A DNA stretch of 64,000 nucleotides from a virus, in IMG/VR virus record IMGVR_UViG_3300031754_000001, positions 1 through 64,000 of that record; one strand, 5' to 3'. The notes under the pieces are model-generated. The model made no database searches. It saw only the letters and a list, made by a program, of their open reading frames with translations, and had not been told where the DNA came from. A program made the translations under genes and the position numbers. Positions 3,823-60,897 of this stretch are shown one piece after another (within the stretch, counting starts at the first letter, position 1; each line of letters begins with the position of its first letter).

Positions 3823-3886
3823 CCCGTGGCCGGGTTAGCTCCGGAGCCGGGAACTTCTTGCCTACACAGGAAGGTCCCGGCTCCGG
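3823..3886 (+). promoter_or_regulatory. leader RNA motif plus SD-sequestering hairpin upstream of terminase
   Basis: CCC-GT-GGC-CGG(7)CCG-GA-GCC-GGG, then alternative hairpin 3841-3886 covering AGGAAGG; -10-like TACGCT at about 3802. Confidence 0.6.
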
Positions 3887-3888
3887 TC

Positions 3889-5667
3889 ATGTCCGTCGCC
3901 CTGCGGGTCGTGCCGGATGTCATCCTGCCCGACGGCCAGGTGCTGCGCGGGCTGGCCGGGCAGCAGCAGCCGAGATTCTGGACCGCCCCGCCGCGGCACC
4001 GGGACAAGGACCCGGCCTGCGCGGCGTGCCGGAACCCGGATTACGCGGGCGGCTGCGGCGACTACCAGTCCGCGGACCTGCTCAGCTGGGCGCCGGATTT
4101 CGGCTACGACCTGGATGAATGGCAGCAGTGGTGGCTGGCCGAGGCCTGCGGGACCCGGCCGGACGGCACGTGGGCGGCTTTCGAGAACTACCTGGTCGTC
4201 AGCCGGCAGAACGGCAAGAACCAGTGCCTGGAGGTCCGCGAGCTGGGCGGCCTGTTCGTCTTCGGCGAGACGATGATCATCCACACCGCGCACGAGTTCA
4301 AGGCCGCGGCCGAGCATTTCCGCCGGGTCCGGGACACCATCACCGCCTACGACGAGTTGCGCAAGCGGGTCAAGTCGATCACCACCTCCCACGGCGACGA
4401 GGCGATCGAGCTGCGGCCGGTGCCCACCCTGATCTTCGGCCCGGCCGGCCGGATGGTCCGCCGGACGATTACGCCCCGGCTCCGGTTCCTGGCCCGCAGC
4501 CGGGGTTCCGGCCGGTCTTTCACCGCGGATTGCGTCGTCTACGACGAGGCGATGATCCTGAGCGACGAGCAGGTCGGCGCCTCGATGCCGACGATGAGCG
4601 CCGTCCGCAACCCCCAGATGATCTACACCGCGTCCGCGGGATACAAGGATTCCGTCCAGCTCGGCGCGGTGCGCCGCCGGGTGCTCCGCGGGGACCCGAC
4701 CCTGATGGGCGCCGAGTGGTCAATCAGCCCGCACGCCGACACCTGCCCGCGTGACGAGATCCGCGGCCGGAGCACCAACCGGTACATCACTTGCACCCTG
4801 CATGACGACCGGGACGACCCGCGGTCCTGGGCCAAGGCCAACCCGGCGCTGGGCGATCGGATCACCGTCCGGCACGTCGCCCAGGAGATGGCCTCGATGA
4901 GCACCGACACCTTCGACCGGGAGCGGCTGGGCGTCGGCGACTGGCCGTCCGAGGACGAGTCCTGGTCGGTGATCAGCAAAGAGCACTGGGAAGCCTGCGC
5001 GATGCCCGATCCCGGCGGAGCCTGCCGGCCCATCGCGTTCGCCGTGGACGTGGACCCGGACATGCTCAGCGCGTCGATCGCCGCGGCCTGGTACCGGCCT
5101 AAGCCCGGGTTGCAGCAGGCCGCCGAGGACGCCGAGATGATGACCGCGATGAAGTGGTCGGCTACCACCGGGATGCCATTGTTCTCGCCGCAGCGGAAAA
5201 TCCGGGACGAGAAACCGGTGATCGAGATCCCGAGAGGCTGCCACCGGGAGGGCGTCAGCTGGGTCATCCCGCGGCTGGCCGAACTCAGGACGGCGTGGCG
5301 GCCCATCGCGGTCGCCATCCCGAAGAACGGGCCGGCTGCCGGGCTGATCGATGACGCGGAGAAGGCCGGGATCGAGGTGCTGAAGATGTCATCCGCCGAC
5401 GAGGCCGCCGCGTTCAGCTTCATCGTCACCGCCGCCCGGTCCCGTAATCTCATCCATCTCGGCCAGGAGAATGCCCCGGGCATGTGGCACGCCGTGGCCA
5501 GGGCCGAGACCCGGGACATCGGCGACGGCGGCCACGCCTGGTCGCGCCGCGACAGCGAGTCGGACATCACTCCGGTCACCTCAGGCACGGCCGCGCTGTG
5601 GGCGCTGAACAAGAAGCGCCGGAATTACGATCCGATGCGCAGTATAGGATTAGAACAGGTAATCTAG
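3889..5667 (+). CDS. terL: terminase large subunit
   Basis: Walker A VSRQNGK, Walker B VVYDEA, YTAS coupling motif, KANPALG, nuclease FAVDV and SDITP; in-frame TTA at 5650 just after YDPMRSIG. Confidence 0.95.
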   Translation: MSVALRVVPDVILPDGQVLRGLAGQQQPRFWTAPPRHRDKDPACAACRNPDYAGGCGDYQSADLLSWAPDFGYDLDEWQQWWLAEACGTRPDGTWAAFENYLVVSRQNGKNQCLEVRELGGLFVFGETMIIHTAHEFKAAAEHFRRVRDTITAYDELRKRVKSITTSHGDEAIELRPVPTLIFGPAGRMVRRTITPRLRFLARSRGSGRSFTADCVVYDEAMILSDEQVGASMPTMSAVRNPQMIYTASAGYKDSVQLGAVRRRVLRGDPTLMGAEWSISPHADTCPRDEIRGRSTNRYITCTLHDDRDDPRSWAKANPALGDRITVRHVAQEMASMSTDTFDRERLGVGDWPSEDESWSVISKEHWEACAMPDPGGACRPIAFAVDVDPDMLSASIAAAWYRPKPGLQQAAEDAEMMTAMKWSATTGMPLFSPQRKIRDEKPVIEIPRGCHREGVSWVIPRLAELRTAWRPIAVAIPKNGPAAGLIDDAEKAGIEVLKMSSADEAAAFSFIVTAARSRNLIHLGQENAPGMWHAVARAETRDIGDGGHAWSRRDSESDITPVTSGTAALWALNKKRRNYDPMRSIGLEQVI

Positions 5668-5675
5668 TAATGAGG

Positions 5676-5891
5676 ATGAACCTGCTGCTGGCTTTCGATA
5701 CGGATTCACCGGAGTACTCTCGCGGCGTGGAACTGGGCATTCTCTGGGAGACGCTACGGCGGGATGGCCATGCTCGTTGCATGATGCACGACGGTAATGC
5801 CGAGATGATGATCCGGGCCGCCGAAGCATTGAACCTGCCATTCCGGGCTGAGCCGGCCGGAGATGGCTGGCTACATGCGGAAATAGGATGA
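5676..5891 (+). CDS. hypothetical protein
   Basis: MNLLLAFDTDSPEYSRGVELG...; ATG lies within GGATGA at 5674-5679. Confidence 0.7.
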   Translation: MNLLLAFDTDSPEYSRGVELGILWETLRRDGHARCMMHDGNAEMMIRAAEALNLPFRAEPAGDGWLHAEIG

Positions 5892-5950
5892 TCAGATGCA
5901 GGTGACTTCCGTGCTGGGCACGCACGTGAGGCGTCAGGCCCGGGAAAACC

Positions 5951-6101
5951 GGGCGGTAACGCGCAGACCGCGAGATAGCGACTAGCGATGCGGATGCAAG
6001 CCGGGGCTGGATGCGCAAGCGCCGCCGGGAAGCGGCCGAGCCCGGTGAGCTGCCCGCTAGCAGAGCGGCGTACGGGTTCGAATCCCGCGGGTTACCTGCC
6101 T
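5951..6101 (+). ncRNA. tRNA-like ncRNA with expanded anticodon domain (YrlA-like candidate)
   Basis: Terminal stem GGTAAC/GTTACC, D-like CGC-gagata-GCG, CTAGCG/CGCTAG enclosing about 65 nt, T arm CGGG-TTCGAAT-CCCG. Confidence 0.6.
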
Positions 6102-6121
6102 GGCCGCGGGAGGCCGGCGTG

Positions 6122-6487
6122 ATGTCCCGGTTTCACTACCGGCAGGGCTGGCTGCTGTACGCGAATCCGGAGATCAGACAGGGCATGGTGGTCTCCGGCG
6201 ACGTGCTGACGTTCGAGCTGTCCGCGGAGCGCTCGTTCGGCGGCATGTCCCTGCGCGTCACCTGCGAGCTGCCCGGCGCGAGCCTGCGGCAGTCAGTCCC
6301 GGCGTCGCCCAGGACGCTGGAGCAGCTGATGTGGGAAGCACTGCAGTCATGGCCGGAGCCGGGCGCCAGGGATGGCCGCAGATGGCCACCGGAGATGGAG
6401 GCGCTGCTGGAACTGGCGAAACGCCATCCGGAGGAGTACGAGGAGCTGCGCGAGGGCGCGGCCGTTTTCCGGGCACTGGGCGGATGA
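6122..6487 (+). CDS. hypothetical protein
   Basis: SD GGGAGG before GTG/ATG at 6119/6122; the upstream part of ORF 6011 overlaps the ncRNA. Confidence 0.6.
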   Translation: MSRFHYRQGWLLYANPEIRQGMVVSGDVLTFELSAERSFGGMSLRVTCELPGASLRQSVPASPRTLEQLMWEALQSWPEPGARDGRRWPPEMEALLELAKRHPEEYEELREGAAVFRALGG

Positions 6488-6549
6488 CTAGTTATAGGTG
6501 CGTGAGGGCACGCTACCCCACGCGGAAGCCCAAGATATAGGCAGGTTCG

Positions 6550-6819
6550 ATGAGTACCCTGACGCAATCCATCCCGGTTGATGATCTGGCCCGGCAGGCA
6601 CGCGGTGCGCGTCCCGGCCACGGGTTCGCCACCGCCATCGCCGCTGTCTTCGTCGCTATCGGCTGGACCGCCGGGCGGGCCGTTACCGGCATCGCGTTCG
6701 CCGGGGTGTGCGTCCGGTATGGGTACTGGCGCGGCCGGGGCCTGACTGATGAGGAGATTGCCGCCCGGGGAGCCCGCCCGCAGCAGCTGCCCGGTCCGCC
6801 GCGCCCGTCCAAGCTGTAA
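6550..6819 (+). CDS. small membrane protein
   Basis: 89 aa with two hydrophobic segments. Confidence 0.65.
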   Translation: MSTLTQSIPVDDLARQARGARPGHGFATAIAAVFVAIGWTAGRAVTGIAFAGVCVRYGYWRGRGLTDEEIAARGARPQQLPGPPRPSKL

Positions 6820-6833
6820 TCCGGGACCTGCCT

Positions 6834-7007
6834 GTGCAGTGCAGCGCGGGTAAGGCCGGCCCCGGCGGGTGCCAGGCCCCGGTTACCTGGGTGGTAAAAG
6901 CGGCCAGCATGCGCAGGTATGCCTGCGGGCGGCACCTGAACCGGGTCTGCCTGGCCTTGCTCAGCACCGGGGTCGCGTACATGACCGTCTCGATCGAGGA
7001 CGGATAA
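6834..7007 (+). CDS. small Cys/His-rich hypothetical protein (57 aa)
   Basis: VQCSAG..GCQAP..YACGRHL..., ends TAA 7005-7007; below the ORF-track cutoff. Confidence 0.45.
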   Translation: MQCSAGKAGPGGCQAPVTWVVKAASMRRYACGRHLNRVCLALLSTGVAYMTVSIEDG

Positions 7008-7226
7008 GGCTGACGCAGCGGTCCTGGCGTCATAGCCGGCCAGGACCTGCTCGATCGCATTCAGGTCCTGGCCGGCTATGACGCCATCGATGCCGGGGCC
7101 GGACAGCCAGTACATGCCATAGTCCCGGGCGCCCGGATCCCGGCGCCGGGTCTTCCGCAGGATCAGGCCGCGGCGGGCGGCCATGCGCCGGAGCCGGGCT
7201 TCGCGGACTTTCAGCTCGTCACCCAT
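7005..7226 (-). CDS. small basic protein; probable functional end at in-frame TTA (codon 74)
   Basis: MGDELKVREARLRRMAARRGLILRKTRRRDP..DYGMYWL; beyond the TTA the frame runs antisense through two + genes to 6513. Confidence 0.55.
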
Positions 7227-7482
7227 GCGGGCAAGCGTACCGGAAGATGCTCCCGGAGATGACCGGGAACAGGCTTTCGGAAACAGCCTGAAGAGGGACG
7301 TGCTAAACCCGGTGTACTGCGCGTAACCTGTGAGTTAGCCACTGCCCGTACAGGCCGCCCTCGCGCGGAGCCGGGTTCATCCCGTTCCGATCCGAGGGAG
7401 TCCCGGCCTCGTGGGGCTGACCGCCCGTACCCGAGCTGAGAACTCCTTTTCGCATGTCTGCGGGAGGGGGTGATACGGGACC

Positions 7483-11226: not shown

Positions 11227-11252
11227 GACATCAGTATATGCGGAGGTTTGCA

Positions 11253-12290: not shown

Positions 12291-12411
12291 ATCGTATAGA
12301 CGGGGAGATTTAACCCGTTCAGTAAGGAAAACAGAATATATCTGCTGTGGCCGTAGCTGCGTAGGCGTACGGACGGAGCCAGTGCAGATGGCAACCGAAC
12401 AGGAGGAGAAC

Positions 12412-13677
12412 ATGCCATCTGAAGTGGCCAAGCGGCTCCGTGATCGCAGGCTGAACGTCTGGAATGAGGCCAAGGGCCTCGCCGAGTCCGCGGCGACGGA
12501 GAACCGCGCGCTGACGGACGAGGAGCAGGGCAAGTGGGACGCCCTGCAGGAGGAGATGGGCAAGCTCGACACCCGGATCCGCGCGGTGCTGGACACCGAG
12601 AAGCGGGCAAAGGAGGCCGAGGACGCGTTCGACGCGCTGTCCGGCCGCAAGCCCGACGCGGGCCAGGCAGCCCGCACGGCCGGCGGCGGCAAGATGCTGG
12701 ACGAGATCCGCAAGTGGGCGCGCGGCGATGAGGGAGCCGCCCGGCACCTGGAGATCCGGCGCGACGCGGCTCTCGGCCCGATCAACTACCGGATCCTGAC
12801 CACGGCGGGCCAGTCAGGAGGCACAAACGCAAGCAGCATCGTGCCGACTGATTTTTACGACATGCTCATCGCACACCTGATCGAAGTCAGCGGTGTCATG
12901 CAGTGCGGACCCACCGTGCTGAACACGGGCGGCGGCGAGACGTTGCAGGTGCCGAAGACGACAGCACATTCGACCGCGGCCTCGGCGGCGCAGGCGGGCA
13001 ACCTGCCGACTGCGGACCCGGCGTTTTCCATGCAGCCGTTGAGTGCGTACAAGTACGGCATCATGCTGCAGGTCGCCCGGGAGCTGATCGATGACACGGC
13101 CGTTGACCTGCTCGGATATCTTGCTATGCAAGCCGGGCGGGCGCTCGGCAACGCTTTCGGCACCGACCTGGTGAACGGCTCCGGCGCGAGCCAGCCAGCC
13201 GGCGTCGTCACCGTCGCCTCCGCGGGCGTCACCGGCTCCGTGACCGGTGTCTCGGGTGCTCCCTCGTACGCGAACCTGGTGGATCTTGAGTACAGCGTGA
13301 TCGCTCCTTACCGTCAGTCACGGTCCTGCTACTGGCTGGCAGCGGACAAGACGATCGGCTCGTTCAGGAAGATCACCGATACGGTCGGCAGGCCCATCTG
13401 GGAGCCGTCCGCCGTCCTGGGCTCCCCGGACCTGCTGCTCGGCAAGCCCCTGGTGGCCGACCCGTTCATGCCCGCGCTGGCCACCTCGGCCAAGTCGATC
13501 GCGTTCGGCGACTTCAGCCAGTACTTCGTCCGCCTGGTCGGCGGGGTCCGGTTCGAGCGCAGTGACGACTTCGCGTTCGGCTCGGACCTGGTGACGTTCC
13601 GCGCGATCCTGCGCGGCGACGGCACCCTGGTCGACCGGACCGGCGCAATCCGGCTTTACGTTGGGGCGTCCACCTGA
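12412..13677 (+). CDS. major capsid protein (HK97 fold)
   Basis: Coiled-coil N-terminus, VPTDF, RELIDD, DTVGRPIW, LLGKPLV, FGDFSQY, FRAILRGDG; SD AGGAGG. Confidence 0.95.
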   Translation: MPSEVAKRLRDRRLNVWNEAKGLAESAATENRALTDEEQGKWDALQEEMGKLDTRIRAVLDTEKRAKEAEDAFDALSGRKPDAGQAARTAGGGKMLDEIRKWARGDEGAARHLEIRRDAALGPINYRILTTAGQSGGTNASSIVPTDFYDMLIAHLIEVSGVMQCGPTVLNTGGGETLQVPKTTAHSTAASAAQAGNLPTADPAFSMQPLSAYKYGIMLQVARELIDDTAVDLLGYLAMQAGRALGNAFGTDLVNGSGASQPAGVVTVASAGVTGSVTGVSGAPSYANLVDLEYSVIAPYRQSRSCYWLAADKTIGSFRKITDTVGRPIWEPSAVLGSPDLLLGKPLVADPFMPALATSAKSIAFGDFSQYFVRLVGGVRFERSDDFAFGSDLVTFRAILRGDGTLVDRTGAIRLYVGAST

Positions 13678-13697
13678 CCCGGTTCGGGCAGCAATCG

Positions 13698-13743: not shown

Positions 13744-13765
13744 TCACGGTAAGGAGAGGGCCGCC

Positions 13766-14350: not shown

Positions 14351-14694
14351 GCAACAGCCGCCGTCTCCGGCTCTCCGCCGCCGCCAGGACCGCGCTGCCC
14401 CGGTGCGGGACCTGCGGCGGCCGGATCGGCGCGGGCGAGGACCGGATCGAGCTGCACGACGGGCGGCTGGTCTGCGTGCGCTGCCGGGACCGGGGCGTGC
14501 TCGTGAAACGGCTGCCCTGCGGTCACCTGGCGATGCCCGGGACGATGGTGATCTCGGACAGCGCCGACCAGTCCAATTTCCAGTGCATCCGGTGTTCGCC
14601 GCATGCCCGCCTGCCCAGGGGCTATCCTGGGACTAGCGATGCAGTCGCCCGCGGCCTACCGGGAGCCGGGCTCCACATGACGAGGAGCCCCTGA
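14347..14694 (+). CDS. Zn-finger protein, probable CTG start
   Basis: CGTCG, CVRC, LPCGH, CIRC; the open frame extends to CTGA overlapping the previous stop. Confidence 0.5.
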   Translation: MSNSRRLRLSAAARTALPRCGTCGGRIGAGEDRIELHDGRLVCVRCRDRGVLVKRLPCGHLAMPGTMVISDSADQSNFQCIRCSPHARLPRGYPGTSDAVARGLPGAGLHMTRSP

Positions 14695-15290
14695 TGGCCA
14701 TCTCCCCCGCGCACCGGCCGGATGACAACTCCGCGCGGCCTGGCAGCAACGTATCCGGCACTGACTCAAGCCGGGCATTCTCCGGCACTGACAGTCATGA
14801 CGACGACCCCACCAACATGACCGGGCAGTACCCGCCGGGCGGCTGGGGCAACGCGATCTTCGGCGGCCCGCTGCCGGCCGGGACCGGGGCGCCGGGCACT
14901 CAGGGCGCCACGCAGTCAGCGGCGTCCGACCCGACCAACGAGCCGGGGCAGACGCGGGACGGCCTCACCGGGGTCAGCGAGCACGACATCACCTCGACCG
15001 GCGCGCCCGGCACGCCGACCGCGGTGCCCGATGCCGCCAACGATTCCTCCGGTGACACCCTCGTCTCATTCACCGCACCCGGTTCGTACTCCTCGGGCAC
15101 TTACCAGTCCGAGACCTTGCACGATGACCTGGCCGGCCCGGCTGACTCCACCCAGGCCAACGACCAGGGCTACGCGACGGGCGGCCCGCAGCTGCCCGGC
15201 CTGAAAGGCAACGAGCCGCAGGCCGGCAGTGCCCGGTACCAGCCGGCCGGCGGGCACGTGCTGCGCGGCGGCCGGGCAGTCAGGGGCTGA
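14694..15290 (+). CDS. low-complexity Gly/Thr/Asp-rich protein
   Basis: 198 aa; SD AGGAG. Confidence 0.7.
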   Translation: MAISPAHRPDDNSARPGSNVSGTDSSRAFSGTDSHDDDPTNMTGQYPPGGWGNAIFGGPLPAGTGAPGTQGATQSAASDPTNEPGQTRDGLTGVSEHDITSTGAPGTPTAVPDAANDSSGDTLVSFTAPGSYSSGTYQSETLHDDLAGPADSTQANDQGYATGGPQLPGLKGNEPQAGSARYQPAGGHVLRGGRAVRG

Positions 15291-15292
15291 TC

Positions 15293-18720: not shown

Positions 18721-18805
18721 TCCGGATACGCTAGGCGCATCGGTACCCGCGGCCGGGCAGGAGCCGGAGCCGGGAACCTCCACTCTCGCTGCCCGGAGGT
18801 TCCTC

Positions 18806-22257: not shown

Positions 22258-22259
22258 CT

Positions 22260-30579: not shown

Positions 30580-32235
30580 TTACAGGTCGCCCCGGCCGTG
30601 GTTAGCCAGCAGTTCCGGCACCGCGCTGTCGAAGCCGCTGATGTCGATCTGCCGCGGGTCGTCCGGGTCGGCGATGGAGAACTCTGTGGGGACCACGGCG
30701 ATGACCTGCAGCCGGGCGTCGATGCCCATCTTCTGCCGGTAGTTCTCCAGCGCCTGGTGCGGGTGGATCGAGCCGAACCAGGTCTCGTTGTCGGTGTAGC
30801 ACTGGAACACGTCGACCTCCACCCGATTCCGCAGCGCCCAGACCATCGGCGCGGCACAGTCCGTGCTGCCGCCCCAGCTCTGGGACATGACCCGCATCAC
30901 CTGGTCCAGCCGCATTCCCGGCGAGACCTGCAGCGGGTACAGCTCAGAATTGAACCCGTAAAGGCCGTACCGGGGCTCGGTCGCCATCTGGACCATGGCC
31001 ATCGCGCCCGCGATCTCAGCCGCGACAAACGGGTAGCCCTCACCAGGCGGCACGTTCCGGAAGTACTGGCTGGTGATCGGCCAGCCCATGGAACCGGAGG
31101 TATCGACAGCACCCATGACGCGCTTGCCTGCCGGGATCACGGCCGGGAAGGCCGCGTAGAAGGCGCCGGACAGCGCGTCGCAGACCTGCGGGACGGGAAC
31201 CCACGTGGAGTCGCCCTTCGCCGACCGTCCGGCCGCGTAAGTCCGCAGCGCGATCAGGATGGCGACCGGATGGACCCGCGCCGCGGCCAGCCGGGCCGGG
31301 TCGCGCAGCTGGTCGCAGATCACCCGGCAGTGCAGGCCGAGCGGGTCTAGCACGCCCAGCCGGGTCAGCTTCGGCAGGTTCCGCAGCAGCGCCGTCATCG
31401 GCAGCCCGGCGTCGGCCAGCGCCCGCCAGACATCCGGCTGCGATGTCGCCTCATCCGGCAGCGCCTCCCACGGCAGGCCCGGGTAGTCGCCGATCAGCCG
31501 CACGTAGGCAGCCGCCTTGGCTGCCGGCCTGCCGTCCCCGCGCTCGATCTCCCGGGCACGCTGGTAGGCCAGGATCCACTTTGGCAACTCACCGCGCTCG
31601 GTGACGCCCTTGGCCAGCCAGTTGAACAGGTCCCGGTGCGGCTGGTCCGCGTTCTTCGTGGAGTGCGCGGAGCGTAGCACGTCCAGGTGCGTCCAGCCCT
31701 GCCGCTGCCGGTACTTGACCAGCTGGTAGGCCAGCTCCTCCGGGTCCTGGTGCAGGTACCAGCCCGCGAACGCGCGCCGGGCCACCGGACCCCAGCCGCG
31801 GAACTGCTCAGTGTACTTGGCCGCGGTGAACAGGTGCGTGCCCGTCCGGACCACCCGGTCGAAAGCCGCGGCGGCGGACCGGCGGCCCTCGGTGTCGCCC
31901 AGGGCCATGGCCGTCATGACGGCGAACAGGGCCGGGTCGTTGCGCGGCGCGCGGCCGGCTACGGAGATTTCTGTCGCCATCGCGACCAGCTCCGCCGGCC
32001 GGTTCCGCGCCCAGTCCAGCAGAATCGAGCCGTTATCCAGTGCCAGCGGGCGTGCCTTGACGTAATACGTGCCGCTGTCCGGGACGCCCAGGGTCAGGAA
32101 CCGGTTGATCCGGGAGGCGCCGGGGATGGTGAAGGTGAAGCTGCCTGCGTTATTAGCCTTCTGCCGGGGATCGGCCTGCTCGCGCTGGGGCGTAGCGGCG
32201 CCCCGCGTCCTGATCAGCTCCAGTGCGTCGGCCAT
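30580..32235 (-). CDS. rsr: Ro60/Rsr TROVE-vWA RNA-binding protein
   Basis: NNAG..RFLTLG..GTYY, RTGTHLF, VKYRQRQGWTH.D.LR, LPWE, ARVHP, vWA VDTSGSM, TDNETW. Confidence 0.95.
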   Translation of the reverse strand: MADALELIRTRGAATPQREQADPRQKANNAGSFTFTIPGASRINRFLTLGVPDSGTYYVKARPLALDNGSILLDWARNRPAELVAMATEISVAGRAPRNDPALFAVMTAMALGDTEGRRSAAAAFDRVVRTGTHLFTAAKYTEQFRGWGPVARRAFAGWYLHQDPEELAYQLVKYRQRQGWTHLDVLRSAHSTKNADQPHRDLFNWLAKGVTERGELPKWILAYQRAREIERGDGRPAAKAAAYVRLIGDYPGLPWEALPDEATSQPDVWRALADAGLPMTALLRNLPKLTRLGVLDPLGLHCRVICDQLRDPARLAAARVHPVAILIALRTYAAGRSAKGDSTWVPVPQVCDALSGAFYAAFPAVIPAGKRVMGAVDTSGSMGWPITSQYFRNVPPGEGYPFVAAEIAGAMAMVQMATEPRYGLYGFNSELYPLQVSPGMRLDQVMRVMSQSWGGSTDCAAPMVWALRNRVEVDVFQCYTDNETWFGSIHPHQALENYRQKMGIDARLQVIAVVPTEFSIADPDDPRQIDISGFDSAVPELLANHGRGDL

Positions 32236-32260
32236 GACCGTCCCCTTCCCTGTCGTGAAA

Positions 32261-32757
32261 AACAGGAGCCCGCGAGCGTATTACGGCAACCGGAGCGCTA
32301 TCGCGCCTGATTAGGAGTCAGGAGATAACCGACTGCCATCCGGCCCGCGGGGGGGTTCCTGTTCTTCAGTTGTGCTGGCAAGCGTATTGGTGAAAACCGG
32401 TGTTTTACGCGCTCTAGTGCTGAGCTACGGGGCTGTCCGCCCCGGCGAGGAGTTCCACCTCGCGGCCTCGACCTCCGCAGGGTGATAACCAATTCTCGTC
32501 CGGCCTGCCAGTGTCTTGCTGACGAGCGTATTGAGAGCACCGGGGAACCCTCCTTACGGAGGGGCTGGGGCTTCTCTGACCCCGGATGGGCTTGCGCCCT
32601 GGCGAGATAACCGATTCTCATCCGGCCCGTCAGTAAAGCAGAGCTGGCGAGCGTATCAGTGACAACCGGGTCCCTGCCATCAGGGAAGGGCCGGGATTCG
32701 CGTCCCGAGCCCGGAGGAGTCGAACCTTCGGTAACCGATCATCGTCCGGCCCGCCAG
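32261..32757 (-). ncRNA. array of four Y-RNA-like RNAs (32261-32363, 32374-32512, 32518-32634, 32644-32757)
   Basis: Shared arms GGCCGGAYG..YGGTTA and CCGGT..ATACGCTYG pair into a bulged terminal stem; variable interiors; directly upstream of rsr. Confidence 0.8.
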
Positions 32758-39040: not shown

Positions 39041-39044
39041 GGAT

Positions 39045-39162
39045 GCGGCACTCTCTCCGATTAAGCTACCGGTCAACAACCGGGCCGGCTTTCCGCGACG
39101 CGTACTCACAGGTGGCCTGATCTGCTAAGTGACCGGACGGGACTCGAACCCGCGTCCGCCGC
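39045..39162 (-). ncRNA. circularly permuted tRNA-like RNA
   Basis: 3' half (GCGGC, GGAC, T arm TTCGAGT, CCGGTCA) precedes 5' half (TGACCGG, TAGCTTAATCGGAGAGAGT, GCCGC). Confidence 0.75.
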
Positions 39163-41273: not shown

Positions 41274-41474
41274 TACCCTGGCCTGCATCAGGCCGTAGCT
41301 GCCTTTTCCGGGCACGGACGGGAACGGAGATGATCCCGTCCACTGCCCGGGACTCATTTCCGGCCGGCCTGCCGTCCGTGCCCGGAATTGCGATAACCTG
41401 GGCCTATCAAGCCGTGGCACTTAGGCGCTGACGCGAGCAGGTGAGCCGGGAGTTCCGCCCGGAAGGCCCGCTCC

Positions 41475-42410: not shown

Positions 42411-43412
42411 ATGACCAAACACTATACGCATGAGCACGATCAGGAGATCGCCCAGCTGTATCAAGCTGGTCAGACGACCTACGAGATAGCGGCAGTCTTC
42501 GGAATCTCACCGACACCCGTTACCCGTGCACTAGAGCGGCAGGGAGTTCCGCTTCGGCGAGGTGGCAGGCGCACCACATGGACCGGCACGCCGGAGCAGA
42601 AGGCAGCCGTCGTCGCGGCTTACCTGGAAGGCGAGTCCATCCGGCGAATAGCCCAGCGGCTCGCAGTCCGTGCTACCTGCATAATCGAGGCGCTTAACGA
42701 GGCTAGCATTGACCGGCGTCACCGGGGCAAGCAACCCATGCTCGATGATGAGACAGCGCGCGAAATCGCGGAAGCCTATCAGGCAGGCGAGAAACTTACT
42801 GGCCTGGCTGCCCGCTATAATGTCAGTTACATCACGATCCGGAACTACCTGGTGAAACAGGGCATCGAAATGCGTCCCGCGCATAAGTCCGTGTTCTGGA
42901 CGGAGGAGCGGAAAGCTGAAGCCGCCCGCCGGTATCAGGCAGGCGAGAACCAGCAGGAAATCGCCGCTGTACTCAGGTGCAGTCAGCACGGCGTGTCGAA
43001 TATCCTGCGCAGGCTCGGTGTCCTGGCACGCGGACCTTACCGGCGCCGGGAAGGTCATCCGTCCTGGAACGGCGGTCGAACGCTCACCGAAGACGGCTAC
43101 GTTCGCGTCAAGCTACCCGACGAGTACAGGCACCTGTTTCCGGATATACCTGCGAACGGCTACGTATTGGAGCACCGACTGGTGATGGCCCGGCACCTGG
43201 GCCGGCCGCTGCACCCGGACGAGAACGTGCACCACAAACGGGACAACGCGGAGAACGACCTGGAGCACCTGGAATTGTGGACGTCCAGCCAGCCGTCCGG
43301 CCGCCGGGTAGAGGAGATCGTGGCATGGGCGGCGGAGATGCTGATCCGGTACGCGCCGGAAGCCCTGGTACCGGGCTGGCAGGAACTGCCATTGCCGGAG
43401 GCAGTCACGTAA
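42411..43412 (+). CDS. HNH homing endonuclease with four HTH repeats
   Basis: Four YxxGxxxxxIA/LA repeats; HPSWNGGR; GYVLEHRLVM..LGRPL..ENVHH..N..HLELW. Confidence 0.88.
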   Translation: MTKHYTHEHDQEIAQLYQAGQTTYEIAAVFGISPTPVTRALERQGVPLRRGGRRTTWTGTPEQKAAVVAAYLEGESIRRIAQRLAVRATCIIEALNEASIDRRHRGKQPMLDDETAREIAEAYQAGEKLTGLAARYNVSYITIRNYLVKQGIEMRPAHKSVFWTEERKAEAARRYQAGENQQEIAAVLRCSQHGVSNILRRLGVLARGPYRRREGHPSWNGGRTLTEDGYVRVKLPDEYRHLFPDIPANGYVLEHRLVMARHLGRPLHPDENVHHKRDNAENDLEHLELWTSSQPSGRRVEEIVAWAAEMLIRYAPEALVPGWQELPLPEAVT

Positions 43413-43500
43413 ACTGCCCGTAGAGGCCGTAGCCGCACCTGTCACGGGTTGCGCGGATGGAGCCAGGCTCCCCCGTCCGTGAGAGGTTCTGAGGTAACCC

Positions 43501-44086
43501 GTGGCCGACAGTGATGTTCCCATCACCGCTGGCTCTGGCACCAACATCCACACCTTCCTCAACGGTGCCGGTTTCCACGACCAGGTGGTGCGGGAATCCC
43601 CGGCTACGGCGGTCGCGGCGCCGACGTCGTGGACGCTGGCGGTGGTGGGCACCACGTCCACGATCGCCGCGGACATCACCCGCCGGTCAGTGATCCTGTG
43701 GAACACCAGTGTCAGCGCGACCGTGTACCTGCGCTACGACGGGACTGCGCCGACCACCGCGGCAGGCGGGTTCCACGACGAGATCCCGCCGGGCGGGCGG
43801 CTGGAGGTCGCCAAGGAACTGGTCACCCTGGCCGAGTCGTTCATCGCATCGGCCGCCGTGGGCACGCTGAACATCTCCCTTGCGACGGCAGCCTGACATG
43901 AGCGATCAGGCACTGATCTCCGCCTACATCTGGGCCGCCTCCGTCATCGTGGTACTGGCCGTCGTCGTGGTACTGGGCGTCGCCCTCGCCTGTGCCGGCC
44001 CACTCCGCCGGGCGTTCTTCCGGATCCGGCACGCGATTGCCCGCGCAGTTCATCGCGCGGTACGGAAGGCGGCGACATGGGCTTGA
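43501..44086 (+). CDS. structural protein (43501-43896) and small membrane protein (43898-44086)
   Basis: Beta-rich 131 aa; 62-aa TM protein. Confidence 0.6.
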
Positions 44087-52224: not shown

Positions 52225-52225
52225 C

Positions 52226-52858: not shown

Positions 52859-52859
52859 C

Positions 52860-53606: not shown

Positions 53607-53724
53607 GCCCGGCCCGGCGTCGCAAGCGGAAACGACTGCCGTGGATGGTCCGGGCGATGGCAGCTATCCTCACGACCCGGAAGAGGAAGCGGAAACGGGA
53701 ACCGGGCGACGTCGCGGAGGCTGA

Positions 53725-54009: not shown

Positions 54010-54146
54010 CCGGAAAATCGCGACCCCGGGCAGGAGCGTGAGTAGCCGGCTCGGCGCGCTCTCCCTCCGGATATCTGGCACACTGGTAAACGCAGCGGGC
54101 CGGAGGAACCGGACCCAGGGCAGGCATCACCGGAGCCCCTGCCCTC

Positions 54147-54884: not shown

Positions 54885-55582
54885 TGAAAGCCCCCCGGTC
54901 ATGCTGGACTGGTCGCTGTGGTGCGGTCGGCATCTGGAGCCGTACCGGGCACGGTGGCCGGAAGGCGCGATGGTCGCGATGATGCGGCTGTTCGACGCGG
55001 CCGTGAAGATGCCCGCCGTGGCCGAGGCAGCCGGGCATAAGACGGAGAACCTGACCGGGGCGCTGCAGCGATTCGCGCCGCTGTGCTGCTTCATCAGCCG
55101 GGACGAGCTGGAAGCGATCTACGCCGAGACAGTGCTGCTGCCCCCGGGAGCCGGCCATGGCTAACCTGATCGCCATCCGGAACGCGATCGCCGCGAATAT
55201 CACGAAGTACACCGGGCTGCGCGCGGACGGCCAGGCCCGTGATTCCGTTACGCCGCCCTGCGCAGTAGTGCTGCCCGGCAGCCCGTACATCACCTATGCC
55301 GTCACCATGGACGGCGCGCTGAATTTCAATTTCATCGTCCTGCTGATCATCTCCGATGCCGCCCCGGTGGAGAAAACCCAGCGAGCCCTGGACGCGCTGC
55401 TCGGCGCGGGCAAGAGCACAGACGTGACCGGATCGGTCCCGATGGCGATCGAGCAGGATAACACCCTCGGCGGGACGGTGGATTTCATCCAGTCGGTCAC
55501 GGCTACGAATTACGGCCGCATCGATTACGCCGGCCAGACGTATTTCGGGGCCAGGGTTAACTGCGTCGTAGGAGGAATGTGA
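54877..55582 (+). CDS. hypothetical protein (54877-55164) and tail terminator-like protein (55157-55582)
   Basis: IRNAIA..TPPCAVV..AIEQDNTLGG.V pattern in the second ORF. Confidence 0.7.
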
Positions 55583-57585
55583 TGGTCACCACCGCCTGGC
55601 ACGTCGAGCGCGTGCGGATCGAGGAGTACCCGGTCCCGGGCAAGCCGCTCGGCCGCCATGTCTACCACGATTCCCGGAACAGGGCCTACCCGTGGCCCCG
55701 GCAGGCCGGCCGGGAACTGACCTCCCAGCTGTGGACCCGGCACACGCCGATCCTCGATCAGGGATCTATCGGGTCATGCTATCCTCCGGGTGTGAGGATA
55801 CGAATGGCTGATGGCAGTGAACGGCCCATTGAAGACGTGCGGCTCGGTGAGCACGTAGCTACGGCCGAAGGGAATACTGGCCGCGTCATGCAGACAATGA
55901 TCCGAGACGAGGATGGCGGTCTTATCCGCCTGATCTTGTGGGGGCACAGTCACCTGCGCATGACCCGCGAGCACCCGGTCCTGACCAAGCGCGGTTACAT
56001 CCCGGTCAGCAAACTTCGCGTCGGTGATCAGGTAGCCCTCACTCGGTACTTGCCAGAGCAGTACACAACTCATGTCGTCACAGCCGGGCACATTGCTCAG
56101 CCAAGTCACCGGGTTGTCCGGGGTACCCGCTGGCAGGGGCTTCCCGGACGCCGCGGGCTAACTGCAGGCAGTCACATCATCCCGGAAAAGATCGAGCTAA
56201 CTCCGGCATTCGGGCGGCTTATCGGGCTATTTCTGGCAGAGGGCAACATCGATGAAGCCAAGGTGGTCTTCTCCCTGCACCTGAATGAGAAACCCACGCT
56301 AGGTGACGAGATTGCCTCAATCATGTCGGCCTACGGTGTCCAGGCTTCCCGGCGGGACCTGCCAGAGCACCACGGTCACAAGGTCAGCGTGCACGGCACC
56401 GGATGGGCACGGCTCCTGTCATCGCTATGCGGGAACGGTGCGGGACTCAAACGCCTGCACCCTGACCTGACTTCTGGCCCGCCGGAATTTCTGGAGGCAG
56501 TCTTGTCCGGTTGGCGAGATGGGGATGGCCACCGTAAGAAGGATGCCGCTGAGCATACCGGGATCACGATCAGCCACGATCTTGCCCTGGCCATGTACGA
56601 CATTGCCCAGGCTCTCGGCTACCGGCCAGTCATCCGCCATACCCCGCCAGTCGTTAACGGGTTTGCTCGGACCCGGCAGTGGCGCTGGGAAGTAGCTACA
56701 TCGGGCTTGAACGCCCGGAATTACAGCACCCAGGATGATCAGCATGTCTGGCGGAAGGTTCGCGAGATCCGGCTGGAGGATTACATCGGACCGGTTTATG
56801 ACCTGACCGTGGAAGGCGATCACTCCTATGTTGCCGAAGGTGTCGGCGTACACAACTGCACCGGTAACGAGGAAGCAGGCGCGCTCGGCACCGACCCGCT
56901 GTTCGCCGCCCTGCGCAGCGGCTACCCGGTGCTGGACGAAGCGCTGGCGGTCAGGATCTACTCGATGGCCGAGACCATCGACGGGGATGGCCCGTACCCG
57001 CCGAACGACAACGGATCGTCCGGGCCGTCCGCTGCCCAGGCCGCGAAGAACCTCGGCCTGATCGCCGGGTACCTGCACTGCTTCAGCCTGGCTGACGTGC
57101 TCGACGCGCTGGAGGCCGGCCCGGTCGGCATCGGCGCCAACTGGTATGACTCGATGGATTCACCGGACAGCTCGGGCCTGGTGGTCATCAGCGCGGGCGC
57201 TCAGGTCCGCGGCGGCCACGAGTTCCTGTGCCGGGGCAAGGACACCGACGCCCGGCTCCTGCACTTCGACAACAGCTGGGGCACGTCATTCGGCGTCAAC
57301 GGCAGCTTCTCCATGGGCTACGCCACCCTGGAGCGGCTGCTGGCCGAGCAAGGCGACGCCACCGTCTCGCTGCCGCTGACTGCACCCGCTCCGGTACCCG
57401 TCCCTGTTCCCGTGCCAGTACCGCCGGCTCCTGTCCCCACGCCGCCGAACCCCGGCCCGGACACAGATCCCGCCGACGATGCCCTGGCCAGGACCGTCTC
57501 CAACTGGGCGCAGGGGCATCACACGGGATCGAACGAGCGCGCCGCCAGGGCCATCCAGGCGTGGCTCACGGCGAAGGGGCTTTAG
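55579..57585 (+). CDS. papain-like (C1) cysteine peptidase with intein, possibly lysis- or virion-related
   Basis: LDQGSIGS|CTGN, GGHEF, DNSWG..FG.NG.F. Confidence 0.88.
   Translation: MMVTTAWHVERVRIEEYPVPGKPLGRHVYHDSRNRAYPWPRQAGRELTSQLWTRHTPILDQGSIGSCYPPGVRIRMADGSERPIEDVRLGEHVATAEGNTGRVMQTMIRDEDGGLIRLILWGHSHLRMTREHPVLTKRGYIPVSKLRVGDQVALTRYLPEQYTTHVVTAGHIAQPSHRVVRGTRWQGLPGRRGLTAGSHIIPEKIELTPAFGRLIGLFLAEGNIDEAKVVFSLHLNEKPTLGDEIASIMSAYGVQASRRDLPEHHGHKVSVHGTGWARLLSSLCGNGAGLKRLHPDLTSGPPEFLEAVLSGWRDGDGHRKKDAAEHTGITISHDLALAMYDIAQALGYRPVIRHTPPVVNGFARTRQWRWEVATSGLNARNYSTQDDQHVWRKVREIRLEDYIGPVYDLTVEGDHSYVAEGVGVHNCTGNEEAGALGTDPLFAALRSGYPVLDEALAVRIYSMAETIDGDGPYPPNDNGSSGPSAAQAAKNLGLIAGYLHCFSLADVLDALEAGPVGIGANWYDSMDSPDSSGLVVISAGAQVRGGHEFLCRGKDTDARLLHFDNSWGTSFGVNGSFSMGYATLERLLAEQGDATVSLPLTAPAPVPVPVPVPVPPAPVPTPPNPGPDTDPADDALARTVSNWAQGHHTGSNERAARAIQAWLTAKGL
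55777..56856 (+). mobile_element. intein with LAGLIDADG endonuclease (360 aa)
   Basis: Starts CYPPGVRIRMADG; TREHPV; IGLFLAEG and LSGWRDGDG; VYDLTV; ends VHN; +1 Cys. Confidence 0.94.
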
Positions 57586-57831
57586 GTGGAGCCCCCGCTG
57601 ATCCCGCCGGAGGAGTTCGTCGCCCAGGTTAACGCGCGCAACCCGGGCCTGCCGTACCGGACCGCGCTGGATCCGCTGATGATGCTGCTCTGGCACACCG
57701 TCTCGGCCCCGCCGGAGCGCGACCAGCTGACGATCATCACGGGCTATTGATGAGCGGCTGGCCCGGGTCCCGCTGCTGTGGACCGCGGCCGGGCTGATGC
57801 TTGGTAACGAGGCTGTTCAGGACAAGTACGA

Positions 57832-58368
57832 CTACGAAGGCGCAACAGCCTGAATTACCCAGGTTTCGCCCCGGACGAGCATTCCGATCGTCGTCTTTCC
57901 CATGCAGAACTCCCGTGCCAGGCTGGCCTGAGACTCCCCGGCAGCATTCCGTGCCCGGATCTGCTCAACAAGTTTCCAGGTCAGCTTGGCACGGCCGTTC
58001 TGCTCGCCGGCGGGTTCCGTGCCGTCCCGCCAGCGGTCCTCCTGGTTGCGTTTTGGCGTCCCGTAGTAGAGATTGTCCGGGCTGCAGTCGGTCTGCCCTG
58101 CTGGACCATGGCAGACCTGGTGTCCTGGCGGGCGTTTCCCGATCCAGGTCTGGGCAACCAGGGTGCCGACATAACAGTTGGTACTCTCTCCGTTGACACT
58201 GAGGAGAACCATCAGGCGCTCATATTCGCCGCTTGGATAGGCTTTGCGGATACCCCCGCGCGTACCGGGCCGGGGAAGGCTGCGGATACGTCCGTGACTA
58301 GAGGCGTCGTAGAAACCTTCAAGGCCAGGAATCGCCCGCCACTGCTCGGGCTCGCTAAGATAGCTCAC
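57832..58368 (-). CDS. NUMOD4-HNH homing endonuclease
   Basis: EQWRAIPG..YDASSHGRIRS; VCH..D..DNLYYGTPKRN; AKLT..HTH. Confidence 0.88.
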   Translation of the reverse strand: MSYLSEPEQWRAIPGLEGFYDASSHGRIRSLPRPGTRGGIRKAYPSGEYERLMVLLSVNGESTNCYVGTLVAQTWIGKRPPGHQVCHGPAGQTDCSPDNLYYGTPKRNQEDRWRDGTEPAGEQNGRAKLTWKLVEQIRARNAAGESQASLAREFCMGKTTIGMLVRGETWVIQAVAPS

Positions 58369-58503
58369 AGCGCAGGTCCAATCTGCGTCAGGTGGCCCGG
58401 TCGCTGCCCTGGACGGCACGGCCGGGCTGATACCTGGATGTTACCCGCGGCTGCGGCCTTCTGGAGCCAGCCTCTCTCGTTTCACGGAGGGAGGTGATGC
58501 TAA

Positions 58504-59578
58504 GTGCGTGTTCTGATTTGTCACCCAGGACCCGATTTTTCCGTAGCAGATGTTTATGCGGGCTGGACCGAAGGCCTGAAAGAAATGGGTTGTGAAGTGG
58601 CCGGATACAATCTTTTACCCAACGACAGGCTCATTTTCTACTCGCTGGCCCTGATCGACAGCGGGGAAGAGGATGAAACCGGGCACCCGATCGTGCGCCA
58701 GGCGATGACTCAGGAGCAGGCTTTTGCTGCTGCTATGCAGGGATTGAGTCATGCCTGTTATACTTTCTGGCCCGATGCCATCTTGTTTATCAGCGGGTTC
58801 TTTCTCAATGCCGCTACTTACGAGCTACTGCGCAGCCGTAAGCACAAGCTAGTCATCCTGAATACAGAATCGCCTTATTTACCAGGACAACGAGCAGCTG
58901 ACCCGCGGGCAGCTCGCGCACCTGAACCTGCTGAATGACCCCACGAACCTGGAATCGTTCAGGAAAGTGACCCCGGCTGAGTACATGCCGCACGCCTACC
59001 GGCCTTCCGTGCATTATCCCCGGCGGGGACCGCGCAACCCGGAACTGGTCAGCGACCTGTGCTTCATCGGCACCGCATTCCGGAGCCGGGTGGAGTTTTT
59101 CGAGAAGATGGACCTGGCCGGGCTTGACGTGCTGATCGGCGGAGCCGACTGGGGCTCGGTCGACCCGGGCAGCCCGCTGGCGCCGTTCATCGGGTCCGGG
59201 GTCGGCAACCCCGATTGCGTCGACAACACCGAGGCGGCCAGGCTGTACCGGCACGCGAAAGCCGGCCTCAACTTCTACCGGCGGGAAACCGCCGAGGCCG
59301 AGAACTGGGACGGCACCGCCTGGGCGATGGGGCCGCGGGAGATCGAGCTGGCCGCCACGGAGCTATTCTTCCTCCGGGATCCCCGGCCCGAGGGCGACGA
59401 GGTGCTGTCTATGCTGCCCACGTTCACCGGTCCGGAAGACGCGAGCGGGAAGCTGCGCTGGTGGCTAGCGCACGACCGCGAACGGGAGAAACGAGCTGCC
59501 CAGGCCCGCGCTGCGATCGCGGACCGGACGTTCACCGCGAACGCCCGCCGCCTGCTCCAGCTGCTTGACAGGATCTGA
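58504..59578 (+). CDS. CgeB-like glycosyltransferase split by a 4-nt gap at 58879-58882
   Basis: ..NTESPY (frame 1) joins QDNEQ..YMPHAY..DLCFIGT..LNFYR..GPREIELAA (frame 2) at TAT-T-TAC; second TTA at 58615. Confidence 0.85.
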
Positions 59579-59581
59579 GGG

Positions 59582-59839
59582 TTATCTCTCCGGGGGCAGC
59601 CCGAGCATGGCGTTCAGGCCCTCATCCGCTATCGTGCCGCTGATATCGATACTGAGCGGCGGGATGCTGCTCAGCAGCCTGATCGCCCCGGCTGCCCTCC
59701 GGATATGTTCCGTGAATTCCCGGGTGTCCTGCACGACGACGCAGCTCGCGTCCGCGGCGGCCTGGTACAGGTTTCCCCAGACATCCTGCGGCGGGGAAGG
59801 CCGGGCGATCGGGTCCAGGACGATCCGCAGCCTGATCAT
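59582..59839 (-). CDS. hypothetical protein
   Basis: 85 aa; SD GGAGGTG. Confidence 0.55.
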   Translation of the reverse strand: MIRLRIVLDPIARPSPPQDVWGNLYQAAADASCVVVQDTREFTEHIRRAAGAIRLLSSIPPLSIDISGTIADEGLNAMLGLPPER

Positions 59840-59843
59840 GTGA

Positions 59844-60143
59844 TCACCTCCAGGCCAGGTTACCCAGGCTGTCGTCGGTCTTGCCGCCGGGGCCGTGTCT
59901 CGCTCTCCGGCCGCTGCCCGGCCCGCGGAACGCCCGCAGGACGAGGCTCCCTACCGTCACTGTCGTGATCCGGCCGTACTTCGAAAGCGTTACCACCCGA
60001 TAGCCTTTGCTGTTCAGCTGCGGCGCGAGCAGGCCGCCGGCCGTGGCCGCCCTCGGCAGCGAGTACACCTGACCGCAGCAGCTCACCTCGTAGAAGCCGG
60101 CGTACCGGGGTACCGGCAGCCACTGCTCCCTGCCTGCGCACAT
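59844..60143 (-). CDS. short NUMOD4-HNH-like protein
   Basis: EQWLPVP..FYEVS..GQVYS..VLRAF..RH..D.SLGNL; lacks the last HNH residues. Confidence 0.7.
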   Translation of the reverse strand: MCAGREQWLPVPRYAGFYEVSCCGQVYSLPRAATAGGLLAPQLNSKGYRVVTLSKYGRITTVTVGSLVLRAFRGPGSGRRARHGPGGKTDDSLGNLAWR

Positions 60144-60346
60144 GAGGCCCGTACCGTGCTGCATCGTAATGAGCGTTGCCGCTCCAGCACGGGCCGGGCC
60201 TCGACTTTCCCAGGATACAGGATTGGGATCCGGGAGTTCATGAACTAGGCAACTTAAACTGATGCCGACGTTGCCGAGGCCCGTAGCTGCCCACCAGGCG
60301 TACGGATGTGGAGCCGGCTCCCTACTGTTCCTTAGAGGGAGCACAG

Positions 60347-60793
60347 TTGTCCCGCATTCACGGACGTAACGGAGTGGCGTACGTTTCTGTAGACGGCATT
60401 GGTGGCGCAAACCCTGTTGCGAGCCCCATGGCGTTCCTGAGTGACTGGAGCATCAACTTCACCGTCGCGAAAGTTGATGTTACCGCCATGCTCGACTCGA
60501 ACCTCATTTACGTTGCGGGACTCCCGGACGCATCGGGAGACTTCACGGGGTTCTACGACACCGCGACTGCTCAGACGTACGTCGCGGCTACAGACGGCCT
60601 TCCGCGAAACTTCTATCTCTACCCGTCCAACCTGGCCGCTCAGATGTCACCAGTGCCCCAATATTTCTTTGGTACTGTCCTGCCCGATTATTCACTCGCA
60701 GGTGGTGTCGCCGCAGCCGTATCACTCAAGAGCACTTGGAACGCGGCCAGCCGGATCCAGCGGTACCCGGTTTACGGCCTGCCGGGCACCTGA
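60347..60793 (+). CDS. major tail (tube) protein
   Basis: SRIHGRNG..WSIN..DVT..YVAGLPDASG.F.GFYD; TTG start; SD GAGGGAG. Confidence 0.85.
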   Translation: MSRIHGRNGVAYVSVDGIGGANPVASPMAFLSDWSINFTVAKVDVTAMLDSNLIYVAGLPDASGDFTGFYDTATAQTYVAATDGLPRNFYLYPSNLAAQMSPVPQYFFGTVLPDYSLAGGVAAAVSLKSTWNAASRIQRYPVYGLPGT

Positions 60794-60897
60794 CAAGTCC
60801 CGGGGCGCGGAACGTGGGAAGCCGCGCCCCGGTTCCCCGTTTCTGGCATGGCCCGCTGCGCACGGGAGCTGCCCCCGTCTCGTGAGAGGAGGCAGCC

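Follow-up and report, generated by a model that had tools for sequence, protein, structure and literature searches.

The window analysed here, the first 64,000 nucleotides of the linear, 139,583-bp viral record IMGVR_UViG_3300031754_000001 in IMG/VR, carries a recurrent RNA hairpin in the leaders of the late genes of an uncultured soil phage. The element is real and conserved, and it is undescribed in the resources that we searched. Its stems covary, it stands after -10 hexamers and before late genes, and the helices next to it that pair with the Shine-Dalgarno (SD) sequence or the start codon covary as well. Our tentative preference, based on sequence comparison, is that the element acts in cis as a hairpin at the 5' ends of late mRNAs, tagging them for a translational switch like that of Com and mom in phage Mu.

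In the short form of the hairpin, a stem P1 of four to five covarying pairs leads into an internal loop, 5'-NGG-3'/5'-AGC-3', beyond which a second stem, P2, opens with CC/GG and then varies. The first-pass annotation of the window had listed nine main sites, and the element it described is present in the sequence at every one of them. Short forms precede the genes for the terminase large subunit (3823-3851; P1 CCCG/CGGG, loop UGG/AGC, P2 CCGG/CCGG), the portal (7344-7376; with a 6-nt 5' loop, a weak model score and a GTG start at 7411), a protein of no family (14647-14671; gene 14694-15290), an NAD-dependent epimerase (18746-18774), a glycosyltransferase (58449-58472; a minimal form of 24 nt, start GTG 58504) and the product of gene 60898-61461 (60845-60873; with an A-U closing pair, GGCA/TGCC). 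Long forms with a double loop are found before the major capsid gene (12340-12389, core 12343-12384, with an extended outer stem pairing ATCTGC at 12340-12345 with GCAGAT at 12384-12389), gene 43501-43896 (43416-43468) and the major tail protein gene (60273-60318; start TTG 60347). Four further copies were found, one of them a partial long form comprising the inner domain only (41291-41321, after TACCCT at 41274-41279) and three beyond the window, at 71831-71853, 110903-110928 and 111036-111063. All copies lie on the plus strand, and the complete copies in the window end 22-37 nt before a late-gene start. The partial copy leads into a possible open reading frame (ORF) of 33 codons with its ATG at 41331.

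The record has an estimated completeness of 66% (CheckV), a G+C content of about 67% and 34 minus-strand tRNA genes between 32.7 and 39.5 kb; our own gene call by codon usage gave 195 genes and an intergenic share of 15.6%, with the virion genes on the plus strand at 1-75.7 kb. No close cultured phage was found by megablast, and the capsid and terminase are at most 32% and about 36% identical, respectively, to any record of the phage collection. The relatives used here are uncultured phages: a capsid protein search of IMG/VR returned 270 related stretches, and 80 loci with 77-92% identity were examined.

Three covariance models were built, R1 from seven short copies of the genome (MAFFT misaligned the mix of all nine sites, and 58449), R2 from the relatives' copies only and R3 from capsid leaders. 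Among the 49 matches of R1, the held-out copies at 58449 (22.4 bits, E 0.027), 7344 (20.9 bits, E 0.062), 12340 (17.2 bits) and 60273 (15.1 bits) ranked 8th, 10th, 12th and 25th, respectively, while the copy at 43416 was missed. With R2, the top nine matches in the 139,583-bp genome, starting at 14646, 110901, 18744, 3821, 71829, 111034, 58448, 60843 and 12342, were all plus-strand leaders; matches in coding regions throughout the genome scored at most 18.6 bits, and the scores at 7343 and 60271 were within noise. Orthologous copies in the portal leaders of relatives score up to 32 bits. The extended arm that the first-pass annotation saw in common among the capsid, tail and 43416 copies was recovered by R3, which matched 43410-43472 (25.8 bits, E 3.9e-5) and 60266-60327 (25.6 bits, E 4.5e-5) as well as the partial copy at 41293-41321. 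Two weaker sites proposed at the same time, 40303 and 54116, were found by none of the three models at E<=10 or 5 and were rejected; by eye, the former has a loop of 1 nt, and the latter has a ribosome-binding site (RBS)-type GGAGCCCC 10 nt before GTG 54147.

A compact structural descriptor gave eight plus-strand matches, all intergenic, and two on the minus strand, against a both-strand mean of 1.58 (sd 1.23, maximum 7) in 200 dinucleotide shuffles. Similarly, the pattern GGCC-N(4-14)-GGAGCCRGS occurred 12 times forward and twice in reverse, compared with 2 and 3 for a control pattern. Loose descriptors returned hundreds of matches on both strands and were swamped by chance in this G+C-rich DNA, and one stricter descriptor (26 matches on the plus and 7 on the minus strand, against about 15 and 13.5 per strand in shuffles) was uninformative. 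In 57 of the relatives' 80 capsid loci (778 kb), the R1 matches at E<=1 numbered 102, and 99 of these lie on the capsid strand. A pattern scan of IMG/VR hit at least 115 stretches, but in 27 loci on further contigs the model matches were mostly the pattern match itself, and the scan is uninformative on spread beyond the phage family.

The motif does not correspond to a known Rfam family. At gathering thresholds, a cmscan search of Rfam 15 found only tRNAs, and none of the 47 window matches at E<=5 lies at a motif site. A literature search of full main texts found no description of the motif.

Covarying stems around an invariant internal loop

Over 73 distinct short copies, 93.5% of the stem cells are paired in the register described above, compared with 82.0% in shuffles, and two-sided changes occur in seven of the eight pairs, a level that 0 of 500 shuffles matched. 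Slid-register controls reached at most 63% pairing. The pair that closes the internal loop on the P1 side, between the base before NGG and the last base of GGAGCY, is G-C in 67 copies, A-U in 2 and C-G in 2, and the pair on the other side, between the first P2 base and the G before AGC, is C-G in 71 and U-A in 2. Within the loop, all 71 distinct copies have the same G, G, G and C, 69 of them also have the A, and N is never G. The terminal loops vary in both length and sequence; the conserved bases sit in the internal loop.

Together, the model matches and the pair counts in relatives bear out the first-pass proposal of a recurrent, covarying leader RNA motif at late genes, but favour another pairing register. 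Where the first pass drew GGC/GCC as a helix and GA as a bulge, GG and AGC here face each other in an internal loop. In the first-pass register the fit is slightly worse, the distinguishing pairs being G-U in 2 copies and other combinations in 3, and U-G in 2. The same sequences read in our register give A-U, C-G and U-A compensations, one such case being the 60845 copy (GGCA...UGCC). Since these covariation events are few, our preference for this register is moderate, and both pairing conformers may exist.

In the long form, found in the capsid, 60273 and 43416 leaders, a second copy of the loop stands inverted across a 4-bp CCGU/ACGG helix. Across 42 distinct capsid leaders, an invariant GGCCGUAGC...CGGACGGAGCC surrounds a hairpin that changes freely and remains paired.

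These features also bear on whether the conserved bases might be an operator or a promoter-downstream element read as double-stranded DNA. The fixed position of the motif relative to the -10 hexamer (see below) would suit such a site, but GG and AGC are separated by anything from 7 to about 45 nt, the conserved bases lack a palindromic arrangement, strand specificity is strict (the 99 of 102 matches given above), and the stems covary with wobbles on the sense strand (21 G-U versus 11 A-C cells). We consider a DNA-level site extremely improbable.

Promoters and genes behind the hairpin

Of 91 leaders (79 from relatives and 12 from this genome), 76 have a TANNNT hexamer whose end lies 8-22 nt before P1, most often at 13-16 nt, and such hexamers are nearly absent elsewhere in the 63 nt examined. 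The aligned consensus is GGnnTAnnCT, followed 6-7 nt later by purines and without a -35 element. In Streptomyces avermitilis, 2361 mapped start sites have TANNNT as their -10 element (PMC8780764). The fixed position of the hexamer suggests that the hairpin opens the transcript, beginning about 6-9 nt in, and transcription would presumably start from these -10-only promoters.

In this genome, the first-pass remark that several copies follow a TANNNT element agrees with the hexamers found at 8-22 nt at five of the nine window sites and 7 of the 12 copies genome-wide. Those in the window are TACGCT at 3802-3807 (terminase, 15 nt before the motif), TAACCT at 7324-7329 (portal), TATCCT at 14623-14628 (gene 14694), TACGCT at 18727-18732 (epimerase) and TAAACT at 60255-60260 (major tail), all on the plus strand. 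No hexamer stands at this distance from the capsid, glycosyltransferase, 60845 and 71831 copies, and at 43416 a TAAACT abuts P1. Directly upstream of the terminase promoter lies an adenylosuccinate synthetase gene (2532-3782; PF00709, E 8e-59). In leaders of the 14694 type, both in the window (14609-14632) and in relatives, the -10 hexamer is located inside an inverted repeat, CCCAGG...CCTGGG, which could be an upstream terminator hairpin or an operator.

The genes behind the motif have late functions, as far as they can be named. The first-pass labels of terminase, portal, capsid, epimerase and glycosyltransferase were confirmed, that of the major tail protein is weak (phrog E 1.4e-4), and that of a chaperone, given to gene 60898, is unverified; classing of downstream genes by blastx worked for capsid and terminase and poorly for 14694. 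The set also includes an endolysin with a peptidoglycan-binding domain and four genes without a family. The replication block at 95-110 kb contains no motif copy in genome searches with R1 and R2, and the lysin gene at the end of this block has two tandem promoter-motif units. These units span 110886-111063, and the first of them is followed by a 19-codon ORF and a terminator-like hairpin, with no gene. The portal start GTG 7411, around which relatives conserve GUG GGG CUG AUC GAG, does not share a frame with the long portal ORF, which opens after the stop at 7420.

Promoter-plus-motif units can be only about 0.5-1.8 kb apart (58449, 60273 and 60845), and this dense spacing fits a role exerted on each message. 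The spacing is relevant to another possible role of a promoter-proximal hairpin, in transcription elongation. Lambda N with nut boxB, and HK022 put, are small promoter-proximal RNA hairpins that control elongation, and boxB has a conserved GNRA-like pentaloop; the terminal loops of the present hairpin, in contrast, vary. Together with Tat/TAR of HIV (for TAR, PMC6483171), these are small hairpins read co-transcriptionally close to the promoter, with clade-specific sequences. Unlike the motif described here, which has many copies, each beside an RBS-occluding helix, they occur in one or two copies per genome, are read at a terminal loop or bulge and control elongation.

A phage factor or RNA polymerase could likewise read the motif as an elongation or antitermination tag and make late transcription processive. 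Such a tag would account for the fixed distance from the -10 hexamer in the 76 of 91 leaders and for a bulged hairpin right after the start site, which resembles TAR (PMC6483171), and the distant prophage relatives discussed below, which carry a different hairpin with a CGNNA loop before the capsid gene, would suggest reader/RNA pairs specific to each clade. However, with three units in 2.4 kb and two in 160 nt at 110.9-111.1 kb, read-through of terminators seems unneeded; a simple terminator scan of 1-20 kb, of a kind ill-suited to high-GC genomes, found no plus-strand intergenic terminators; and the conserved, covarying pairing with the SD or start codon points to translation. We regard an elongation tag as unlikely.

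Alternatively, the hairpin might serve only to deliver late messages to a ribonuclease of the host or the phage, or to shield them from it, while leaving initiation unaffected. Its position a few nucleotides from the predicted 5' end, ahead of every abundant late message, would be appropriate for processing or stability. Against it, none of the helices comes near the length that RNase III requires, the 5' end would retain some 6-9 unpaired bases, and nothing in such a function accounts for the covarying occluders. We consider it improbable.

Occluding helices and a candidate translational switch

When the leaders are read and folded, the SD or the start codon is seen to lie in a helix that starts at the 3' strand of the motif or overlaps it. 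The first-pass annotation had described an SD-hiding hairpin overlapping the 3' arm of the motif in at least six leaders; such a helix is indeed present at six sites (terminase, 14694, epimerase, glycosyltransferase, major tail and 60898), but in three of them the overlap is just 2 nt. In the terminase leader, an 11-nt anti-motif, CCCGGCTCCGG (3876-3886), which is complementary to the 3' half of the motif, lies between the SD (3868-3874) and ATG 3889. The 14694 hairpin (14668-14690) pairs GGGCTCC at 14668-14674 with GGAGCCC at 14684-14690 and shares 4 nt with the 3' strand of P1. The three hairpins with an overlap of 2 nt with P1 are those of the epimerase (GGAACCTCC/GGAGGTTCC, 18773-18803), glycosyltransferase (CCTCTCTC/GAGGGAGG, 58471-58494) and major tail (GCTCCCT/AGGGAGC, 60317-60342) leaders. 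In the helix of gene 60898 (GCTGCC/GGCAGC, 60868-60896), the 3' strand of the motif itself serves as the 5' arm, and the 3' arm abuts ATG 60898. All of these helices are on the plus strand.

The capsid leader gives the clearest example, a pairing between the nine bases that follow the motif and the start codon with codons 2-4. Here, CAGATGGCA at 12385-12393 pairs with TGCCATCTG at 12413-12421 on the plus strand, forming a start-occluding helix (12385-12421), with the ATG at 12412; in this genome the helix overlaps the extended outer stem at 12384-12389, and the two are thus mutually exclusive. Among 47 unique capsid leaders, the helix takes the matched forms GAUGCC/GGCAUC in 23, GAUGGC/GCCAUC in 6 and GAAGGC/GCCUUC in 7; the two strands match in all 36 leaders typed in this way, and the remaining 11 belong to other kinds. 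In two terminase leaders of relatives (L099 and L088), the 5' strand of P1, its 3' strand and the downstream anti-motif have changed together, and CCTGG occurs downstream in 5 of 11 leaders with a CAGG-type P1 compared with 9 of 71 with a CGGG-type P1 (Fisher p 0.018). Against shuffled RBS windows, pairing of the 3' half of the motif gave a mean z of -0.99, with 35% of values below -1.64 (n=52 unique leaders), whereas the 5' half gave +0.63. When the motif was forced in folding, predicted RBS accessibility rose in 9 of 11 own leaders; in the folding and accessibility analyses, the RBS windows of the glycosyltransferase and major tail genes were set from 58499 and 60350, 3-5 nt off the likely starts.

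From the place and pairing of the motif, we infer the existence and nature of a reader and the direction of its effect as follows. The transcript would start a few bases before the hairpin, mostly from a minimal -10-only promoter (GGnnTAnnCT), and the RNA directly 3' of the hairpin, often overlapping its 3' strand, would pair with the region of the SD or the start codon. The invariant loop would be bound by a reader acting in trans, which is most likely a phage protein from an earlier stage of infection; this would keep the hairpin closed, upon which the neighbouring translation-inhibiting helix would open or be unable to form. Translation of the whole late set would then be switched on, and the strength of each occluding helix would set the output of its gene. 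The likeliest role of the hairpin is as a docking site, for a regulator whose binding would relieve the adjacent inhibition. The first-pass annotation had likewise supposed that a ligand or phage protein stabilises the motif and frees the RBS; pairing of the SD or start codon at or 3' of the motif agrees with this, but no such ligand or protein was found.

Several results weigh against a simple translational switch. Forcing the motif gave no rise in accessibility in the capsid and 14694 leaders; the motif lies outside the predicted minimum-energy fold in 11 of 11 own leaders, and forcing it costs 5-18 kcal/mol. The SD hairpins of the epimerase, glycosyltransferase and major tail leaders persist when the motif is forced, so that motif and hairpin can coexist, and one subgroup of capsid leaders keeps the occluding helix without overlap with P1. 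Predicted RBS accessibility of the motif genes is just slightly below that of the other 186 genes (0.386 versus 0.439, one-sided p 0.039), and compared with genes that have a 60-nt upstream gap, the difference has p 0.057. Moreover, the counts and statistics over relatives given here are uncorrected for shared ancestry. Searches for a reader also gave nothing. Pfam scans of the 75.8-139.6 kb part of this record, itself an estimated 66% complete, covered 100 proteins of 50 aa or more and identified 13 families, none of them RNA-binding, and the Com-type zinc ribbon (PF10122) exceeded its cut-off in none of four genomes (this incomplete one and three large relatives), the best score being 11.8 bits in one relative.

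Two proteins seen in these searches may be recorded, neither of which has a link to RNA. One is a 295-aa protein encoded on the minus strand at 90425-91312, whose C-terminus matches the C-terminal domain of RNA polymerase alpha (PF03118, 29.8 bits) and which could be a phage transcription factor for the -35-less promoters. The other, at 113964-114746, has a sub-threshold match to a zinc-finger-like CXXCXGXG motif.

The empty reader scans are what would be expected if the leaders were tuned kinetically without any factor, with the hairpin forming first and delaying the pairing of its 3' side with the RBS or start codon, refolding setting the window for translation, and the 5' end being protected. 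In MS2, the maturation gene is controlled by such non-equilibrium folding, in which a fold of the 5' leader competes with a long-range helix that closes the ribosome-binding site; unlike the present case, this is a single gene of an RNA phage, and no invariant loop suggests a reader. In keeping with kinetic tuning, transcription produces the motif ahead of its competitor, the competing folds have a large advantage in stability (5-18 kcal/mol), and the strength of the occluder varies by gene, being strongest for terminase, of which few copies are needed. Nevertheless, this leaves unexplained why five loop bases should be invariant over 71 distinct copies with drifting stems, and why the long form should carry a duplicated, inverted loop. 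Factor-free tuning is unlikely in our estimation.

Returning to a switch operated by a reader, a broader version of it is possible though on balance doubtful. Late timing would be set mainly at translation, with host-type -10-only promoters transcribing each late gene and a single reader, a phage protein or perhaps a small ligand, acting on the NGG/AGC loop to flip a dozen or more messages at once; the double loop would provide cooperative, stronger activation for the virion proteins of highest copy number, and reader/RNA pairs would co-evolve in each clade, orthogonal to those of others.

Known systems and distant relatives

The nearest working analogue is Com/mom of phage Mu, in which the zinc-finger protein Com binds a short hairpin beside a translation inhibition structure that holds the start codon of the mom mRNA, and activates translation (PMC6483171). 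As in Mu, a hairpin here stands just 5' of a start-occluding helix in the capsid leader, and the terminase, 14694 and 60898 helices make use of the 3' strand of the motif. The proposed binding of the hairpin by a phage protein would also parallel Mu, where it is proposed to expose the start signals (PMC6483171). The motif selected by Com in the experiments described there, with CC, a short gap and GAG, a C-G closing pair and an important GA, loosely resembles the CC...GGAGC of our element (PMC6483171). The two systems differ in that Mu has one target gene, compared with at least 12 late leaders per genome here, and in that the conserved bases here lie in an internal loop, with a gap from CC to GAG of 4-40 nt compared with 2-3 nt in Mu (PMC6483171).

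Among actinophages, the nearest precedent is the start-associated sequence (SAS) repeat of Cluster K mycobacteriophages, a linear 13-nt box, GGGATAGGAGCCC, located 3-7 nt from the start codon of non-structural (right-arm) genes, as described in PMC3203893. Like our element, SAS is an actinophage repeat that occurs in one orientation before many genes, contains GGAGCC and is suspected of a role in translation initiation, its reader being unknown in that account (PMC3203893). However, GGAGCC is all that the two share: the motif in this genome ends 22-37 nt before the starts and, unlike SAS, marks terminase, portal, capsid, tail and lysin genes. The extended form, ESAS, consists of 17-bp inverted repeats whose departures from consensus gave no support for RNA pairing (PMC3203893). 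In the present element, the stems covary and keep pairing.

Prophages of Streptomyces, Amycolatopsis, Pseudonocardia and others form a more remote set of relatives, their capsids being about 50% identical. No significant match to the motif was detected in the 26 actinomycete loci tested; of the 8 matches at E<=1, 5 fell on the wrong strand. These prophages carry a different covarying hairpin, composed of P1, CA, a 3-bp stem GGG/CCC, a loop CGNNA, A and P1', in one to three tandem copies. All 34 occurrences are on the capsid strand, at distances of 60-480 nt ahead of the capsid gene, and the hosts include Actinomadura; in loci L228-L255, it lies at about 5516-5940, with the capsid start at 6001. 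The cultured phiC31-like phage RemusLoopin has no capsid leader at all. Such a difference between clades would be less expected of a host factor or a shared metabolite than of readers that are each matched to an RNA of their own.

The same comparison bears on the idea that the NGG/AGC loop is a riboswitch for some metabolite by which the late stage of infection could be sensed. Its architecture of mutually exclusive folds resembles an expression platform, and the double loop could give cooperativity. Even so, the minimal form is just 24 nt, the motif has no Rfam match at E<=5, and its absence from the 26 loci of Streptomyces, Amycolatopsis and other prophages is not what would be expected of a sensor of a host metabolite, which should be spread more widely. 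A small-molecule riboswitch is very improbable.

How large actinophages time and balance their late genes is largely unknown, and the purpose of Cluster K SAS-like repeats has been open since 2011. The element is a compact, testable case in this respect: an RNA of 24-50 nt with an invariant loop, clear covariation, hundreds of natural variants and a defined competing helix, located before every major virion and lysis gene. Identification of a reader would show whether a whole late regulon is switched at the level of translation, and could supply orthogonal RNA/protein control parts for high-GC hosts such as Streptomyces.

Finally, one motif-like hairpin was observed on the minus strand of the window, at 32212-32239 (R1, 21.5 bits, E 0.044), with an A-U closing pair; it may be a chance match. 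It spans the predicted ATG of a Ro60/TROVE gene (30580-32235). Near this gene, also on the minus strand, two sub-threshold matches to YrlA (Y RNA-like) were seen at 39043-39161 and 32408-32470, scoring 32.2 and 23.9 bits, respectively, against a gathering threshold of 69.

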